A stretch of DNA of 64,000 nucleotides, taken from assembly GCA_041168925.1 (NCBI GenBank), contig JBEEJY010000010.1, forward strand, positions 12,430-76,429, written 5' to 3'. Shown here in pieces: positions 51,314 through 56,956 of this stretch. The notes under the pieces are model-generated. The model did no database searches. It worked only from the letters and a program-made list of their open reading frames with translations, and had not been told where the DNA came from. The position numbers and the translations under genes were made by a program. The first letter of the stretch is position 1, and the number at the start of each line of letters is the position of its first letter. The DNA is from Candidatus Parcubacteria bacterium (GTDB taxonomy: Bacteria; Patescibacteriota; Minisyncoccia; Phycocordibacterales; UBA2100).

Positions 51314-51357
51314 GAGGTACACTAAATGTATGCTATAGCATATATTTAGTGTACCTC
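51314..51357. repeat. 44-bp AT-rich near-perfect palindrome GAGGTACACTAAATGTATGCTATAGCATATATTTAGTGTACCTC (TACACT-N8-GCTATAGC-N8-AGTGTA core)
   Basis: Lies between the convergent M16 peptidase and ung genes. Shares the core architecture with two elements flanking the PaaX-like gene. Confidence 0.6.
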
Positions 51358-51410: not shown

Positions 51411-52091
51411 CTACAACCAGTCAATCGGCTCTTTCTCGTACTTTTTTAAATATTCGTTGGCGCGGCTGAACGGCTTGGAGCCGAAAAAGCCGCTGAAGGC
51501 GGAAAAGGGCGAGGGGTGCGCGGATTCGATGACGCAATGCTTCTCGCGGTCGATGTACGCGCCTTTCTGCTTGGCGTAGTTGCCCCATAAGATGAAGACG
51601 AGATTTCCTTTTTCTTCCGACAACGCGCGGATGACGGCGTCGGTAAATTTTTCCCATCCCTTCCCCTGATGCGAGCCCGCGGTTCGAGCCTTCACTGTAA
51701 GCGTTGCATTCAATAAGAGCACTCCCTGTTTCGCCCAGCGTTCTAAATCCCCCGTCCGATGAACTAATTTCTGACCGAGATCGCTCTCGATCTCTTTAAA
51801 AATATTCTGGAGCGAGGGCGGCAACGCGACACCTTCGCCGACAGCAAAGCAAAGCCCATTGGCCTGTCCCGGCCCGTGGTACGGGTCTTGCCCCAAGATG
51901 ACGACCTCGACTTTGTCGAACGGGGTAAGCTCGAAGGCGCGAAAGATATTTTTCGGCGCAGGATACACGATCGCGTGCCGGTATTCCTCTTTGACGAATT
52001 TCCGGAGTTCGCTGAAATATTCCTGCCCGAATTCATCCTGCAGCACCTTCTTCCACGACGATTCTATCTTGACGTCCGTCTCGCCACTCAT
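51411..52091 (-). CDS. ung: uracil-DNA glycosylase, family 1
   Basis: GQDPYHGPGQANGLCF (water-activating loop) and C-terminal HPSPFS motifs. Confidence 0.9.
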   Translation of the reverse strand: MSGETDVKIESSWKKVLQDEFGQEYFSELRKFVKEEYRHAIVYPAPKNIFRAFELTPFDKVEVVILGQDPYHGPGQANGLCFAVGEGVALPPSLQNIFKEIESDLGQKLVHRTGDLERWAKQGVLLLNATLTVKARTAGSHQGKGWEKFTDAVIRALSEEKGNLVFILWGNYAKQKGAYIDREKHCVIESAHPSPFSAFSGFFGSKPFSRANEYLKKYEKEPIDWL

Positions 52092-52093
52092 GC

Positions 52094-53422
52094 TTACCAG
52101 ATCTCACTCGGAGCAACGTTGTTTGATTTGGTCGCGGAAAGAGGCATGCCGTCCTTGGTCGGTTTTTTCGGCCACTTGTCTATCACTTTCGTCTTCAAGC
52201 CGATGCGATTCAGCACTTTGATAAAAGGGTCGGGGTCGAGCTCTTCGGCATTGACCATGGTGTGTGGCGCCCAAATCCCCTTCGCGACGAGGATGGCGGC
52301 TGCGATGGGCGGTACGCCGGCGGTGTAGGAGATGGCCTGCGACTCGACTTCCCTGTAGCACTTGGCGTGGTCGCAGTTGTTGTAGATGAATACCTCGCGC
52401 CACTTCCCATTCTTCCACCCCTTCACGAGGTCGGCGATGCACGTCCAGCCCGTGTACGTCTTTGCGAGCGATGCCGGGTCGGGCAAAACGGCTTTCAGCA
52501 CTTTGAGCGGCACCACCTTGACCCCCTCGGCGGTCGTGACCGGCTTTTCGGAGAGCATGCCGAGATTGCGCAGCACACCAAAGACATTGAGATAGTGATC
52601 GCCGAAGCCCATCCAGAAGCGGATACTCTTGGCATCAATATTTTTCGAAAGTGAATGCAGTTCATCGTGGCCGTTGAGGTAGACCGGGCGCGAGCCGACG
52701 ACCGGGAAGGTGTAGTCCCACCGCTCGCTATGTACCGGGCGTACGACCCATTTGCGATTGATCCACGTCCACACTTTCTTGAACTCGCGGAAATTTATCT
52801 CCGGGTCGAAGTTGGTGGCGAAATATTTGCCATGGCTGCCGGCATTGACGTCGAGAATGTCTATCGTGTCTATCTTGTCGAAATAATTTTTCTTCGCAAG
52901 CGCCGCCCATACATTGACGACGCCCGGGTCGAAACCGATACCGAGGATGGCGTTGATGCCCGCTTTTTTACAAGCAGCCCGTTTCTTCCATTCATAATTC
53001 GCGTACCATGGCGGATCTTCTGCGACTTTGGTCGGATCTTCGTGGATGGCGGTGTCCATGTAGGTTACCGGGCGGCCGTTCACCTCTTTTGCACGGATAC
53101 ACGCCTCCAAGACCGACATATTGATGTAAGCCGTGCCGAGATTGATCACGATGGACGAATTCGTGTCCTTGATGAGTTTCGTCATCGCGGAAATGTTCAT
53201 CGCATCTATCTCTCGCGAGTAGAGCTTCGCATTCTTATCTTTCTTGCTCCCCTTGCGTTTGATGCTGGCGATGATGGCGTCGGCTTTGGCGCGCTTGCGC
53301 GAGGCGATGCAGATATCTCCGAGGACGTCGTTGTTTTGCGCCGCTTTGTGTGCGGCCACATGAGCGACGGCACCCGCGCCCACAATCAGTACGTTTGGTT
53401 TTGTGTTTTTCATGACCTGCAA
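52094..53422 (-). CDS. carboxynorspermidine synthase/dehydrogenase (saccharopine dehydrogenase family)
   Basis: Rossmann fold VLIVGAGAVAHVAAHKAA and a saccharopine dehydrogenase-like C-terminus; adjacent to the carboxynorspermidine decarboxylase gene. Confidence 0.75.
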   Translation of the reverse strand: MQVMKNTKPNVLIVGAGAVAHVAAHKAAQNNDVLGDICIASRKRAKADAIIASIKRKGSKKDKNAKLYSREIDAMNISAMTKLIKDTNSSIVINLGTAYINMSVLEACIRAKEVNGRPVTYMDTAIHEDPTKVAEDPPWYANYEWKKRAACKKAGINAILGIGFDPGVVNVWAALAKKNYFDKIDTIDILDVNAGSHGKYFATNFDPEINFREFKKVWTWINRKWVVRPVHSERWDYTFPVVGSRPVYLNGHDELHSLSKNIDAKSIRFWMGFGDHYLNVFGVLRNLGMLSEKPVTTAEGVKVVPLKVLKAVLPDPASLAKTYTGWTCIADLVKGWKNGKWREVFIYNNCDHAKCYREVESQAISYTAGVPPIAAAILVAKGIWAPHTMVNAEELDPDPFIKVLNRIGLKTKVIDKWPKKPTKDGMPLSATKSNNVAPSEIW

Positions 53423-53434
53423 ACTGTCGACCTT

Positions 53435-54592
53435 CTAACCGGTAACCGCTCCCAGGCTTCCCTCGAAATCATCGTAGGTAAATTCTCGTACGACGTCAAC
53501 AGCGCCGTCGAGCCGCTTCACGACTATCGAGGGCATCTGCACGCCGTTGAACCAGTTCATCTTCACCATGGTGTAGCGCGCCGCTTGATCGAACACGACA
53601 TAATCGCCGACTTTCAACGGCTCCGGGAGGTCATAGGTGCCCCATATGTCTCCCGCAAGACAGGTATTACCAGCGACCATGAAGCGATTCGGACCCGTCG
53701 CTTTCTCGGCGAGCGTCGCATCTTCGTGATAGACGAGATTATCGAGCATATGCGTCTCCACGGCCGCGTTTATGATGGCAATTTTGAGCTCGTTCTCGAC
53801 GATGTCTTGCACCTGCGTCACCAGAAATCCGGTGCCGAGCACCGACGCCTCGCCAGGCTCTAAGTAAACTTGTACGTCATAGTCGGTCGCGAATTTCTTC
53901 AGCCGGTCGCAGAATTTATCGAGCGGATAGCCTTCGTCGGTAAACGCGATACCGCCGCCGAGCGATACCCACTCCATTTTTTTAAGAAGCGGCCCGTATC
54001 TCTCCCCAATCGTATCGACGATTTTTGAAAACGCATTAAAATCCGTGTTCTCGCAATTTACGTGGAACATAAGCCCCTGTATCTTGTCTGCGACCTTCTC
54101 GATGGCCGCGATGTCCTTCACCCCAAGACGGCTCGCCTTGCGCGCCGGATCAGCGAGATCGAAGTGCGAGTGGCTCACGCCCGGATTGGCCCGCAACCCA
54201 AGATTCTTTCCTTTCACATCCGGATAAAACCGCTCCAGCTGCGAAACGGAATTGAAGATTATCTTGTCGGCAAAGGTTTTAAGCTCGTCTATGTCTTTTT
54301 GCGACCACGCGACGCTGTAGCCTTGCGTCTCGCCACCGAATTTCTCATGCCCCAGGCGCGCCTCGTAGAGCGCGCTCGAAGTAGTCCCGGCCATGTACTT
54401 GCTCATGAGTGGGAAAACAGACCACGTCGAGAAGCATTTGAGCGCTAAAACCGCTTTCGCGCCGCTTTTGTCCCGAACATATTTCATCTTTTCCATGTTC
54501 TTCAGGAGCCGCGCCTCATCGAGCAGATAGTATGGCGTCTGCAATTCCTTGTGCGCTTTCACAAAATCCCAAATCGATTCTTCTTTTGACAT
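53435..54592 (-). CDS. nspC: carboxynorspermidine/carboxyspermidine decarboxylase (PLP-dependent, fold type III)
   Basis: ODC/DapDC-like TIM barrel with a PLP lysine region (AVLALKCF) and a C-terminal beta domain; paired with the dehydrogenase upstream. Confidence 0.8.
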   Translation of the reverse strand: MSKEESIWDFVKAHKELQTPYYLLDEARLLKNMEKMKYVRDKSGAKAVLALKCFSTWSVFPLMSKYMAGTTSSALYEARLGHEKFGGETQGYSVAWSQKDIDELKTFADKIIFNSVSQLERFYPDVKGKNLGLRANPGVSHSHFDLADPARKASRLGVKDIAAIEKVADKIQGLMFHVNCENTDFNAFSKIVDTIGERYGPLLKKMEWVSLGGGIAFTDEGYPLDKFCDRLKKFATDYDVQVYLEPGEASVLGTGFLVTQVQDIVENELKIAIINAAVETHMLDNLVYHEDATLAEKATGPNRFMVAGNTCLAGDIWGTYDLPEPLKVGDYVVFDQAARYTMVKMNWFNGVQMPSIVVKRLDGAVDVVREFTYDDFEGSLGAVTG

Positions 54593-54676
54593 CGTTCGCA
54601 CTATATCACATAGTGTCTCGCAGTCCTGTTCCGGTTGGCCGGCAGGCGGACTAACACAAATTCTGACAGGTGTATC

Positions 54677-55183
54677 ATGCGAGCCTTGGAAACGGTCAAC
54701 CTGAAGGGGAGCACCGTGAGCGTATCGATCGGCGTGATTACCCCGGCGACGGACATTGCGATCTTCGGTGCGTGGGCTTATTTCCTGACCGCGTGGTCAT
54801 GGGGACGCGGCTATCCGGTTGGCTCCTTTGAGGAAATCGTTCGGATGCAATTCGCGATCACTGCGATGATCGAGGATGAGCCAATCGGCTTCGGCGGCAT
54901 CAACCTAACGGCCAATAACGACAACTCGAACGAGTTCGTGCAATGGTTCTCCGCATGGGTCGTTGCTCCGCAATTTCAACGGCGAGGTATCGGGAGAATT
55001 ATTCACCGACACTGCATCGATAGAGCGGTCGATCAACCCGGGCCCATTCGCGCAACTTCCGAATCGTTCCACATGCACCCATTCTTTATCAAAGAAGGAT
55101 GGGCGATCATCCAAGACAAGGAGACGGCCCGGAACGAAGCCGGAAAGCCGATGTACGTCTATGGTTTTTCCCGCGGCGAATAG
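54677..55183 (+). CDS. GNAT-family N-acetyltransferase
   Basis: Motif A VVAPQFQRRGIGRII. Start at MRALETV assumed. Confidence 0.7.
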   Translation: MRALETVNLKGSTVSVSIGVITPATDIAIFGAWAYFLTAWSWGRGYPVGSFEEIVRMQFAITAMIEDEPIGFGGINLTANNDNSNEFVQWFSAWVVAPQFQRRGIGRIIHRHCIDRAVDQPGPIRATSESFHMHPFFIKEGWAIIQDKETARNEAGKPMYVYGFSRGE

Positions 55184-55240
55184 CTGCCGCCGCTAGGGCA
55201 GCCTACAAACACGACCTCCGCGCGATGTGCGGAGGTCGAT

Positions 55241-56230
55241 TTATTTTTGGTGAGACTTGATCGCTCTCATGATTAGAAACTTCGATTCGTAGTGATACGG
55301 AGGATTCGCTTTCGAATATGATTCTCGCGGAATTCTGCTCCGCCAAAATCGCGTTGCATACCCCCGGAAAAGGCGGTTCAGCATTCTCTCTGCGGATTGG
55401 TTTGTATATGCTTTTTCGCCGGGAATGACGTAGGGTTTGCCATCGAATCGGTCCCGCTTGATGTCCGTGGCGAAATCGATGAGTGCTGTTCCATTAGGCT
55501 TGAGCACTCTGTCTATCTCGGAGGCAATGTGTTTGAGTGTGCGCAGAGGAAAGATGTGGAGAGTCCCCACGCAGAAGACGCCGTCCATAGAATTTGCCAC
55601 TATTGGAAATCGTCGAGCGACATCGAAGACTTTCGTTGTGAACTTTCTCTTGTACTTTCGCGATATATTGCGCAGCGACTTCTCAAGGGCGTTCGGATCG
55701 ATATCCGAAGCAATGAGTGAATTAACCGTCCTCAGAAGCAACGCATTGCACCTCCCGTCTCCAGCCGTTAGATGGAGCCACGCACCCTTCACTCGCAGCG
55801 TGTTAATAACCTCCACGGTCTTCGGATCCTCTAAACCCCAGATGGATCGTCTTCCTGTTTTGAGATAATCGATGTGCTCGATATGGTGGTGCAGTCTTTT
55901 CTTATGACGAGAATCTTCGGGTGTTGTATGTGATACTTCATCACTAATCTTGTTTAATCCACTGGCCGCGAAAGCGCCTTCTGATTTCAGCATCGCTTGT
56001 TTTCTGAGCGTGCCGCCTCTGTTGTAGCTCCCAAGCGAACCATCGGAGCGGATGACACGATGGCAAGGGATGCTCTCATCGTAATTGGTGAGCATGATGG
56101 CACCGACGGCGCGCGCGGCCTTCGGATTGCCCGCTCTTGCGGCGACTTCTTTGTAGGTCATTGACTTCCCTTTCGGGATTTTTCTCACCACATTTCGCAC
56201 TTTGTCTGCAAACGTCTTCATGCTCGTCAT
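55241..56230 (-). CDS. fusion protein: N-terminal MGMT-type DNA-binding domain (PCHRV active-site motif) + C-terminal class I SAM-dependent methyltransferase
   Basis: N-terminal 90 aa match the O6-alkylguanine-DNA alkyltransferase C-domain (TYKEVAARAGNPKAARAVG...IPCHRVI). The C-terminal region has the Rossmann motif I LHLTAGDGRCN and the post-II motif LKPNGTALIDF. Confidence 0.6.
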   Translation of the reverse strand: MTSMKTFADKVRNVVRKIPKGKSMTYKEVAARAGNPKAARAVGAIMLTNYDESIPCHRVIRSDGSLGSYNRGGTLRKQAMLKSEGAFAASGLNKISDEVSHTTPEDSRHKKRLHHHIEHIDYLKTGRRSIWGLEDPKTVEVINTLRVKGAWLHLTAGDGRCNALLLRTVNSLIASDIDPNALEKSLRNISRKYKRKFTTKVFDVARRFPIVANSMDGVFCVGTLHIFPLRTLKHIASEIDRVLKPNGTALIDFATDIKRDRFDGKPYVIPGEKAYTNQSAERMLNRLFRGYATRFWRSRIPRESYSKANPPYHYESKFLIMRAIKSHQK

Positions 56231-56266: not shown

Positions 56267-56302
56267 TATACTATATCTTTGCTATAGCATAGTTTTAGTA
56301 TA
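56267..56302. repeat. 36-bp AT-rich palindromic element TATACT-N8-GCTATAGC-N8-AGTATA overlapping the start codon of the PaaX-like gene (divergent promoter region)
   Basis: Part of an about 45-bp direct repeat with the element at 56888..56923. Confidence 0.6.
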
Positions 56303-56871
56303 TGGGAGAAATTGAACGGAGGGGAAAATTAAGGAGGCGAAGGAGGAACATTAAGAATGCCCTGCTGACGGCGATTCAACTTGCGGCAGTTGTCGGTGTC
56401 GCCGTCGCTGCGCCGAATCTGCCGCAAGCCCTTTATAAGACAGGTCTACTGAAGATACGCGGGGATGGCGCGGTTATAAGTCGCTCACGAAGAAACTTGT
56501 TGAGGCGACGTCTACTAAAAGAAGAAAAGGGATTTCTCGTATTGACACGCGCTGGGCAAAGAGAACTGCTTCGGATTGAGCTCGGTGAACGGCGATTGAA
56601 ATCTTTTCGATGGGATGGACGATGGCGTGTACTTATCTTTGATATCCCAGAATACAGAAAGAAAGACCGAGAGAAATTGCGTCGCACGCTCCGGAGCGTC
56701 GGATTCGAGCATTTACAGGACAGCGTCTGGATCTATCCTTATGACTGCGAAGATTTTGTGGCTCTTTTGAAGGCAGATTTCAAAATTGGGAAGGACATGC
56801 TGTATATGATTGTGGAGGAACTCGAGGGAGATTCGACGCTCCGGAAGCAATTCAACCTTCGAAACCGCTAG
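56302..56871 (+). CDS. PaaX-like transcriptional regulator (wHTH + PaaX_C/Cas2-like C-terminal domain)
   Basis: C-terminal WDGRWRVLIFDIPEYRKKDREKLRRTLRSVGFEHLQDSVWIYP matches the PaaX C-domain pattern; the N-terminal half is helix-rich. Flanked on both sides by the palindromic element. Confidence 0.5.
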   Translation: MGEIERRGKLRRRRRNIKNALLTAIQLAAVVGVAVAAPNLPQALYKTGLLKIRGDGAVISRSRRNLLRRRLLKEEKGFLVLTRAGQRELLRIELGERRLKSFRWDGRWRVLIFDIPEYRKKDREKLRRTLRSVGFEHLQDSVWIYPYDCEDFVALLKADFKIGKDMLYMIVEELEGDSTLRKQFNLRNR

Positions 56872-56887
56872 CAGTATCGATTCCGAT

Positions 56888-56923
56888 GTATACTGATTTC
56901 ATGCTATAGCATGGAGTTAGTAT
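56888..56923. repeat. 36-bp AT-rich palindromic element TATACT-N8-GCTATAGC-N8-AGTATA downstream of the PaaX-like gene (between convergent genes)
   Basis: Same architecture as the elements at 56267..56302 and 51314..51357. Confidence 0.6.
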
Positions 56924-56956
56924 ACTGGGCGAGTCGGAACCGATGCCGTGAGATGA

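Follow-up and report, generated by a model that had tools for sequence, protein, structure and literature searches.

We analysed a 64,000-nucleotide stretch of DNA from Candidatus Parcubacteria bacterium (contig JBEEJY010000010.1; hereafter "the window") and examined an open reading frame (ORF) on its minus strand that joins two domains rarely seen together, namely the C-terminal domain of an O6-alkylguanine-DNA alkyltransferase (AGT, or MGMT) and a class I methyltransferase dependent on S-adenosylmethionine (SAM). The pairing of these domains in one polypeptide was confirmed to be genuine. The fused gene most likely arose by a recent, lineage-specific fusion of two separate neighbouring genes, and its domains probably keep independent functions.

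One reading frame with two domains

The 329-codon frame (55241..56230 of the window, minus strand) is fully open, without an internal stop. The true start of the protein is likely M4 at 56221, giving 326 aa, because the stand-alone relatives of the N-terminal half begin with MKTFADKV and an identical metagenomic protein (P0001) was called from M4. The original prediction, made from the DNA letters, had described an MGMT C-domain with a PCHRV cysteine and a class I SAM-dependent methyltransferase in one ORF. Pfam profiles bore this out above their cut-offs, including the DNA_binding_1 match that it had singled out for checking: DNA_binding_1 (PF01035) matched residues 7-85 (E-value 1.7e-26; 92.3 bits versus a cut-off of 27), while Methyltransf_11 (PF08241; E-value 1.5e-10; 42 bits versus 21.2) and Methyltransf_25 (PF13649; E-value 2.5e-10; 41.3 bits versus 27) both matched residues 153-251.

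P0001 (326 aa) is present on three separately assembled contigs (JGI 3300043432, JGI 3300047479 and SRA SRR35181044), which represent three samples (two JGI metagenomes and one SRA run) and two pipelines. Across 2.9-13 kb, each contig matches the window at 99.97-100% identity; the contigs differ from it by one single-nucleotide polymorphism each, both outside the fused gene, and one contig has in addition a 30-nt indel elsewhere. Since three assemblies share the same junction, the fusion is not an assembly accident. It is true that a single-nucleotide indel would suffice to separate the frames of the two halves, and that a TAG-TGA-TGA string stands in another frame right at the junction. Nevertheless, inspection of the junction sequence revealed no long homopolymer, and the methyltransferase frame would have no canonical start even after repair of a frameshift. 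Taken together with the identical junctions, this makes it extremely unlikely that a sequencing or assembly artefact conceals what are really two genes. A tblastn search of the 64-kb window with the fused protein gave no second copy of either half.

Occurrence of the pairing and layout of the junction

The pairing, which the original prediction had called unusual, is indeed rare and was seen in one strain. When the whole protein was used as a query, P0001 was the only one with both domains among the listed matches of 468, so that the proposed search for the same fusion in other genomes returned, among the listed homologues, this identical protein alone. All the other listed matches were stand-alone class I methyltransferases of ~200-250 aa, with a 435-aa tandem methyltransferase as the sole exception in length. 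Furthermore, an exhaustive phmmer search was run against 1.84 billion cluster representatives; the top 150 matched either residues 1-103 or residues 77-327, never both. The longer representatives have other partners: an AdoMet_dc N-terminus (P0244), a second methyltransferase (P0026), or NACHT plus FGE-sulfatase (P0311).

Gene adjacency was examined in 160 loci of the methyltransferase family, comprising 80 GTDB species representatives and 80 metagenome contigs, with flanks of up to 3 kb where the contig allowed. No adjacent MGMT domain was found in these loci by tblastn with the N-domain, the sole match lying ~2.8 kb off (L053). The contigs of six relatives with 56-63% identity (P0003, P0004, P0005, P0006, P0009 and P0010) also had no MGMT neighbour; the genes found there were trehalose genes, Glyco_hydro_42, pilus genes, RecG and ribosomal protein L33. 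Two metagenome scans with the methyltransferase half returned nothing (first scan) or only relatives of at most 61% identity, without an MGMT neighbour (second scan). In general, the gene neighbourhoods of the methyltransferase are not conserved among relatives, and it appears as an accessory gene without a fixed context. Nothing specific on an MGMT-class I methyltransferase architecture was found in the literature searched or in databases outside this strain, and a class I methyltransferase has no counterpart there as the partner of an AGT C-domain.

The closest methyltransferase relative, P0002 (75% identity), is encoded on a 1,981-bp contig (ENA ERZ27297570) and offers a view of the unfused state. 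This contig carries a separate PF01035 gene for a 95-aa protein (608-895) and, 22 nt further on, the methyltransferase gene (918-1610). The two starts are 310 nt apart, an offset of +1, and therefore the two genes lie in different frames. This unfused pair indicates that the window gene is the fused version of an adjacent pair in the nearest known lineage. The case of two separate genes, which had been raised with the original prediction, thus applies to the nearest relative and not to the window, where there is a single ORF.

The junction itself points in the same direction. Residues 88-100 are foreign to both parents, as the stand-alone MGMTs end with ...EGAL(x) and the methyltransferases begin near residue 100-102; this linker probably arose from what used to be the 3' tail and the intergenic spacer. 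Its 13 codons have a GC content of 41% and a third-position GC content (GC3) of 31%, resembling non-coding sequence, compared with a GC of 54-60% and a GC3 of 64-73% in the core genes. In AlphaFold models, the predicted local distance difference test score (pLDDT) was below 50 for residues 68-111 of the full-length protein and for residues 88-90 and 96-111 when the methyltransferase was modelled alone, and the linker region (roughly residues 88-115) is predicted to be disordered. The full-length model was built with a homologue alignment for the methyltransferase half alone, which limits the confidence for the N-domain; hence, this model is uninformative on inter-domain contacts. Given a disordered linker, the domains should act as beads on a string. 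In addition, the stretch between M80 and M215 lacks an in-frame ATG, GTG or TTG, and the methyltransferase part is consequently translatable only within the fusion.

Read in one alternative frame, the junction encodes ...RGQWIKQD before it runs into the TAG-TGA-TGA string. Ancestral use of this frame would give a 95-aa MGMT and a methyltransferase in the +1 frame, both matching the P0002 contig, which suggests that the fusing event was a 1-nt deletion near codon 87/88.

Comparison with related Paceibacteria (L167-L169) placed these changes in a genomic context. The gene order in these loci is YceG, MnmA, a hypothetical gene, ATP-cone/Mrr_cat, MgtC, PDDEXK_1 and mini-MGMT, with UDG nearby, and the start of the mini-MGMT gene lies 6 nt beyond the PD-(D/E)XK (Cas4/RecB-like) nuclease gene, or 4 nt are shared by both. 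The methyltransferase gene is absent from these syntenic loci. Their PDDEXK_1 and UDG proteins are 47-52% and 77-78% identical, respectively, to those of the window, which contains the same block with four additions: the PaaX_M-like gene, the methyltransferase (fused), a GNAT gene and an Orn/DAP/Arg-decarboxylase-like gene. With a GC3 of 55%, the methyltransferase part, like the PaaX-like gene (50%), lies below the MGMT part (64%) and the core neighbours (64-73%); this contrast agrees with a recent arrival of some of the added genes.

On these grounds, we propose the following course of events. The upstream parent would have been an 84-aa Cys-bearing mini-MGMT within the conserved Paceibacteria block, and the downstream parent a ~226-aa methyltransferase of lower GC that, in a recent ancestor, would have come to lie immediately behind the MGMT gene. 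A small frameshifting indel near codon 87/88 would then have removed the MGMT stop codon and, together with loss of the methyltransferase start codon, left a single ORF. Such a fusion would simply co-express and tether two activities.

Predicted activities of the two halves and competing explanations

With residues 1-101 as the query, more than 3,500 matches were obtained, and the best 120 were all stand-alone PF01035 proteins, mostly of 83-87 aa and 73-88% identical; names among them included "MGMT family protein" of Candidatus Paceibacterota, Kaiserbacteria and Patescibacteria. At E <= 1e-30, this mini-MGMT family comprised 641 proteins; the N-domain shares 76-88% identity with stand-alone members of 83-87 aa from Paceibacteria and Kaiserbacteria. 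The stand-alone members run from MKTFADKV to ...EGAL(x), corresponding to residues 4-87 of the fused protein. The TIGR00589 "ogt" model of NCBIfam was passed (72.4 bits versus a cut-off of 46.4), whereas the full-length equivalogs for Ogt (52 versus 192) and Ada (55 versus 345) failed far below their cut-offs, because only the AGT C-terminal domain is present. Consistently, no Pfam match to an AGT N-terminal (Methyltransf_1N-type) domain was found in the fused protein, in which PF01035 begins at residue 7.

A phmmer search against PDB sequences aligned residues 14-86 with residues 102-174 of human AGT. The paired positions are Y26/Y114, R40/R128 (the arginine finger), N49/N137 (the Asn hinge), C56/C145, H57/H146, R58/R147, Y69/Y158, K77/K165 and E84/E172, with the I-P-C-H-R-V motif at residues 54-59 (PCHRV at 55-59). 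Each of these nine residues of the window protein is kept in 121-122 of 122 relatives, among which the PCHRV cysteine is invariant. Among the columns conserved at >=90%, the window N-domain departs only at R47L (R in 121/122; the equivalent of R135). As its catalytic positions are conserved and there is a single departure, the N-terminal half is, judged by its sequence, an ordinary member of a highly conserved family of stand-alone, 84-aa, Cys-bearing MGMTs in Paceibacteria. In the light of this conservation and of the established AGT mechanism, the domain would bind in the DNA minor groove through its helix-turn-helix (HTH), R40 would flip out the O6-alkylguanine, and C56, made reactive via H57 and E84, would take up the alkyl group irreversibly.

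Compared with known systems, the N-domain shares with AGT/MGMT/Ogt and the Ada C-terminal domain (PF01035, TIGR00589) the full C-terminal domain, the HTH, R40, Y26, N49, C56 and H57/E84, but the window protein has no AGT N-terminal domain and is extended C-terminally by the methyltransferase. The alkyltransferase-like (ATL) proteins E. coli YbaZ/Atl, S. pombe Atl1 and V. parahaemolyticus vpAtl are likewise single domains without the AGT N-terminal domain; however, ATLs have Trp or Ala in place of the Cys (PWHRV/PAHRV) and their Asn hinge is missing (PMC10779285). The window N-domain keeps Cys56 and Asn49 and is thus not an ATL; the earlier suggestion of an ATL targeting module for the methyltransferase gains no support. 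The PDB ATL entries 3gva and 2kif do match the N-domain, at E-values of 2e-8 to 1e-7. In the literature searched, we found no characterised single-domain Cys-bearing AGT of the mini-MGMT type; the family would be a natural minimal AGT, with a bearing on how much AGT catalysis needs and on SNAP-tag-like engineering.

The relatives of the C-terminal half are 40-75% identical to it, cover ~60-70% of the query and align from residue ~100. Their hosts are Patescibacteria of the Candidate Phyla Radiation (CPR) and DPANN archaea (Nanoarchaeota, Woesearchaeota, Aenigmarchaeota and others). Stretches conserved across the family are EGIDYxKTGxxSIWG at the N-terminus, LAAGDGRYN (motif I), SDID after strand 2, DGVFCxGTLHxFP, IDFATDxxR and an ANPPY turn near the C-terminus. 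A156, G157, D158 and D176 are invariant, and G159, R160 and D178 are nearly so, in keeping with the glycine-rich motif I and the acidic residue after strand 2 that mark class I enzymes. T155 and C161, which flank motif I, are unique to this strain, the family having A and Y there in >=93% of members. Altogether, the methyltransferase half departs from conserved columns five times, the same number as P0002 (family median 2, maximum 9), and three of these departures are common to both.

The methyltransferase-only AlphaFold model has a pLDDT of 89.6. The predicted fold is Rossmann-like, with alternating strands and helices, and ends in an antiparallel beta-hairpin, as in class I enzymes; in the full-length model, the last two strands comprise residues 291-305 and 312-325, and ANPPY (308-312) lies in the turn between them. 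The top Foldseek neighbours were TehB detoxification methyltransferases (template-modelling score 0.58-0.60, normalised to the query), and the nearest structures are generic small-molecule or protein methyltransferases such as TehB (2xvm), DhpI (3ou2) and Hvo_0019 (6f5z). Their identity to the C-domain is only 13-20% and the resemblance to TehB is at the level of the fold; the TehB equivalog NF008992 scored 12.9 bits, below its cut-off of 303, and the window family differs from TehB-like enzymes by its own N-terminal EGIDYxKTGxxSIWG segment and the ANPPY turn in the last hairpin. DNA methyltransferases were absent from the top structural neighbours, and the N6_Mtase and N6_N4_Mtase profiles of Pfam gave no match at E <= 0.1. 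A DNA N6/N4-methyltransferase, a candidate considered on account of the conserved NPPY, was rejected accordingly, given also the wrong structural position of the motif, which in those enzymes directly follows strand 4. By analogy with the nearest structures, the C-domain would carry out SAM-dependent methylation of a small molecule or a protein group. This ~226-aa family, widespread in CPR and DPANN and with no close homologue that has been characterised, may deserve closer study than the fused gene.

A side observation concerns a Woesearchaeota locus (L037, 2689-3624; CP070803) and the relative P0244, with an S-adenosylmethionine decarboxylase domain (PF02675; E-value 2.4e-8) N-terminal to the methyltransferase. 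This fusion or adjacency is isolated, as no other fetched locus has it.

Based on their sequences, both activities presumably exist and operate independently of each other. An alternative is that the gene is a decaying or neutral read-through, in which a frameshift at the MGMT 3' end impaired one or both domains, as a step towards losing the gene from a streamlined genome. A weak pointer to this is provided by R47L, A155T and Y161C, which are specific to this strain at positions conserved in >=93-99% of relatives; the methyltransferase start codon is gone, and as an accessory gene the methyltransferase varies in its genomic context. On the contrary, the 329-codon frame is fully open, every invariant catalytic or motif residue is retained, the number of conserved-column departures equals that of the unfused P0002, with three in common, and the methyltransferase half is modelled confidently. 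Such decay is therefore unlikely.

Adaptive fusion with cooperating domains was considered as well. In this case, the MGMT domain would bring the methyltransferase to DNA or alkyl lesions, or alkylation of Cys56 would control the level or activity of the methyltransferase. The MGMT and methyltransferase genes also lie next to each other in P0002, the nearest relative, the cell relies on the fusion for a methyltransferase part that has no start codon of its own, the catalytic residues are intact in both halves, and the top Foldseek matches are detoxification enzymes. There are also precedents: AGTs do not strictly depend on their N-domain, and their C-domain occurs naturally fused to other modules, namely in Ferroplasma AGT-EndoV, archaeal ATL-EndoV, C. 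elegans AGT-2 (with a histone-like tail) and Ada (N-Ada plus AGT) (PMC10779285). These proteins resemble the window protein in that an AGT catalytic domain is joined to another module and its own N-domain is dispensable. Their partners, however, are DNA-repair, DNA-binding or regulatory modules, and the fusions are recurrent, whereas the window protein pairs the AGT domain with a generic class I methyltransferase and was seen in a single strain. There was no recurrence in our searches (adjacency in 0/160 loci and 0/6 next relatives; both halves matched by 0/150 top representatives), the linker is unstructured and resembles former non-coding sequence, and the methyltransferase family has no DNA-methyltransferase features. 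Cooperation of the domains thus appears improbable, slightly more so than decay.

A more specific version of such cooperation would be a damage-response device. Alkylation of the active-site Cys destabilises AGT folds, and TehB-like and halide/thiol methyltransferases detoxify methylating or reactive small molecules. Irreversible alkylation of Cys56 might accordingly sense DNA damage and determine how stable or active the methyltransferase is, or where it is located; the methyltransferase in turn would detoxify or produce methylating small molecules or be tethered to DNA. We regard this joint proposal as a long shot, less probable still than cooperation in general; if true, a minimal genome would encode a new damage-response device made of one polypeptide. 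The roles suggested in the original prediction, a DNA-damage-sensing methyltransferase and a self-methylating regulator, gained no support: the halves are normally separate, unlinked genes, and the methyltransferase is unlike DNA methyltransferases.

Since the pairing does not recur, co-expression of two independent activities by a recent fusion of neighbours is the parsimonious reading. Several points nonetheless weigh against it. The adjacency of MGMT and methyltransferase in two lineages, combined with the lost methyltransferase start, means that co-expression may be favoured. R47L in the DNA-binding helix region, seen in this strain alone, and A155T and Y161C beside motif I could reflect altered or decaying activity. 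All three P0001 contigs represent one strain. The proposed fusing mutation derives from the window sequence and the P0002 gene layout, and a search with the predicted 95-aa ancestral protein, including its RGQWIKQD tail, gave no matching 95-aa relative among the best 120 matches.

Overall, in a compact genome even an eye-catching combination of domains can result from strain-level read-through of two neighbours, so that no "Rosetta-stone" functional inference should be drawn from it. The fusion itself matters little, and the mini-MGMT family and the palindrome-flanked PaaX-like insertion are more noteworthy.

Surroundings of the fused gene

The features of the locus are compiled in Table 1. 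As the original prediction had noted, the fused gene and the PaaX-like gene are transcribed away from each other, with a palindromic element between them; the PaaX_M-like gene occupies 56302..56871 on the plus strand, and the 71-bp spacer contains the 18+18-nt inverted repeat.

Table 1 Coordinates of the fused gene, its parts and adjacent elements in the window.
Feature	Position	Strand	Basis or remark
Fused ORF, 329 aa	55241..56230	-	Open reading frame list; stop codon 55241-55243
N-domain, residues 4-87, 84-aa mini-MGMT (AGT C-terminal DNA-binding/active-site domain)	55970..56221	-	
Codon of Cys56, predicted alkyl acceptor of PCHRV	56063..56065	-	Aligns with human AGT Cys145
Linker, residues 88-100, AASGLNKISDEVS	55931..55969	-	Found in neither parent family
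C-domain, residues 101-329, ~226-aa class I SAM-dependent methyltransferase family	55244..55930	-	
Glycine-rich SAM-binding motif I, A156-G-D-G-R160	55751..55765	-	Family conservation
18+18-nt inverted repeat, core TTGCTATAGCAT, divergent promoter region	56267..56302	.	Repeat search; abuts PaaX_M-like ATG
GC-rich hairpin with T-run, bidirectional terminator-like	55212..55238	.	Terminator scan; 12-bp stem, 9 GC pairs

The PaaX_M/Cas2-like gene lies on the opposite strand between the PDDEXK_1 and MGMT genes, which are neighbours in one operon in the related Paceibacteria (L167 3207-4258; L168 3207-4255). It looks like an inserted cassette that split the operon and gave the fused gene a new upstream region. 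Two palindromes bracket this gene, one at its ATG (56267-56302) and the other just beyond its stop (~56888-56925). With a third copy at 51317-51354 and a weaker core match at 2089-2100, they define a palindrome family of ~36-40 bp with the core (A/T)TGCTATAGCAT and outer arms of GTATACT/AGTATAC or GTACACTAAAT/ATTTAGTGTAC. When up to two mismatches were allowed, 10 matches to the core were observed versus 2.4 expected. The third palindrome lies in the gap where the M16 peptidase and UDG genes converge.

On the other side, the fused gene and the GNAT gene converge on the terminator-like site. The GNAT gene belongs to a possible polyamine-related cluster (51411-55183) that consists of GNAT (54635..55183, plus strand), Orn/DAP/Arg-decarboxylase-like (53435..54601, minus strand) and saccharopine-dehydrogenase-like (52094..53422, minus strand) genes, followed by UDG. 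A tblastn comparison of the saccharopine-dehydrogenase-like gene of the window with the one that occupies the equivalent place in L167 and L168 yielded no match at E <= 1e-4. These neighbours, together with the AdoMet_dc-methyltransferase fusion P0244 in one relative, had suggested a link of the methyltransferase family to polyamine metabolism; as a general association this idea was dropped, since the GNAT, decarboxylase and saccharopine-dehydrogenase-like genes do not accompany the methyltransferase family in the other loci. A scan of the 64-kb window with Rfam at gathering thresholds identified no RNA family (no tRNA, rRNA or riboswitch).

Finally, the contig from JGI 3300047479 (L002, ~2850-2860) has a 30-nt in-frame deletion between ACAAA direct repeats, corresponding to ~54436-54465 of the window. 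It affects the Orn/DAP/Arg-decarboxylase-like gene, which loses 10 residues at DK[SGAKAVLALK]CF (375 versus 385 aa), and is a population variant within the same strain.

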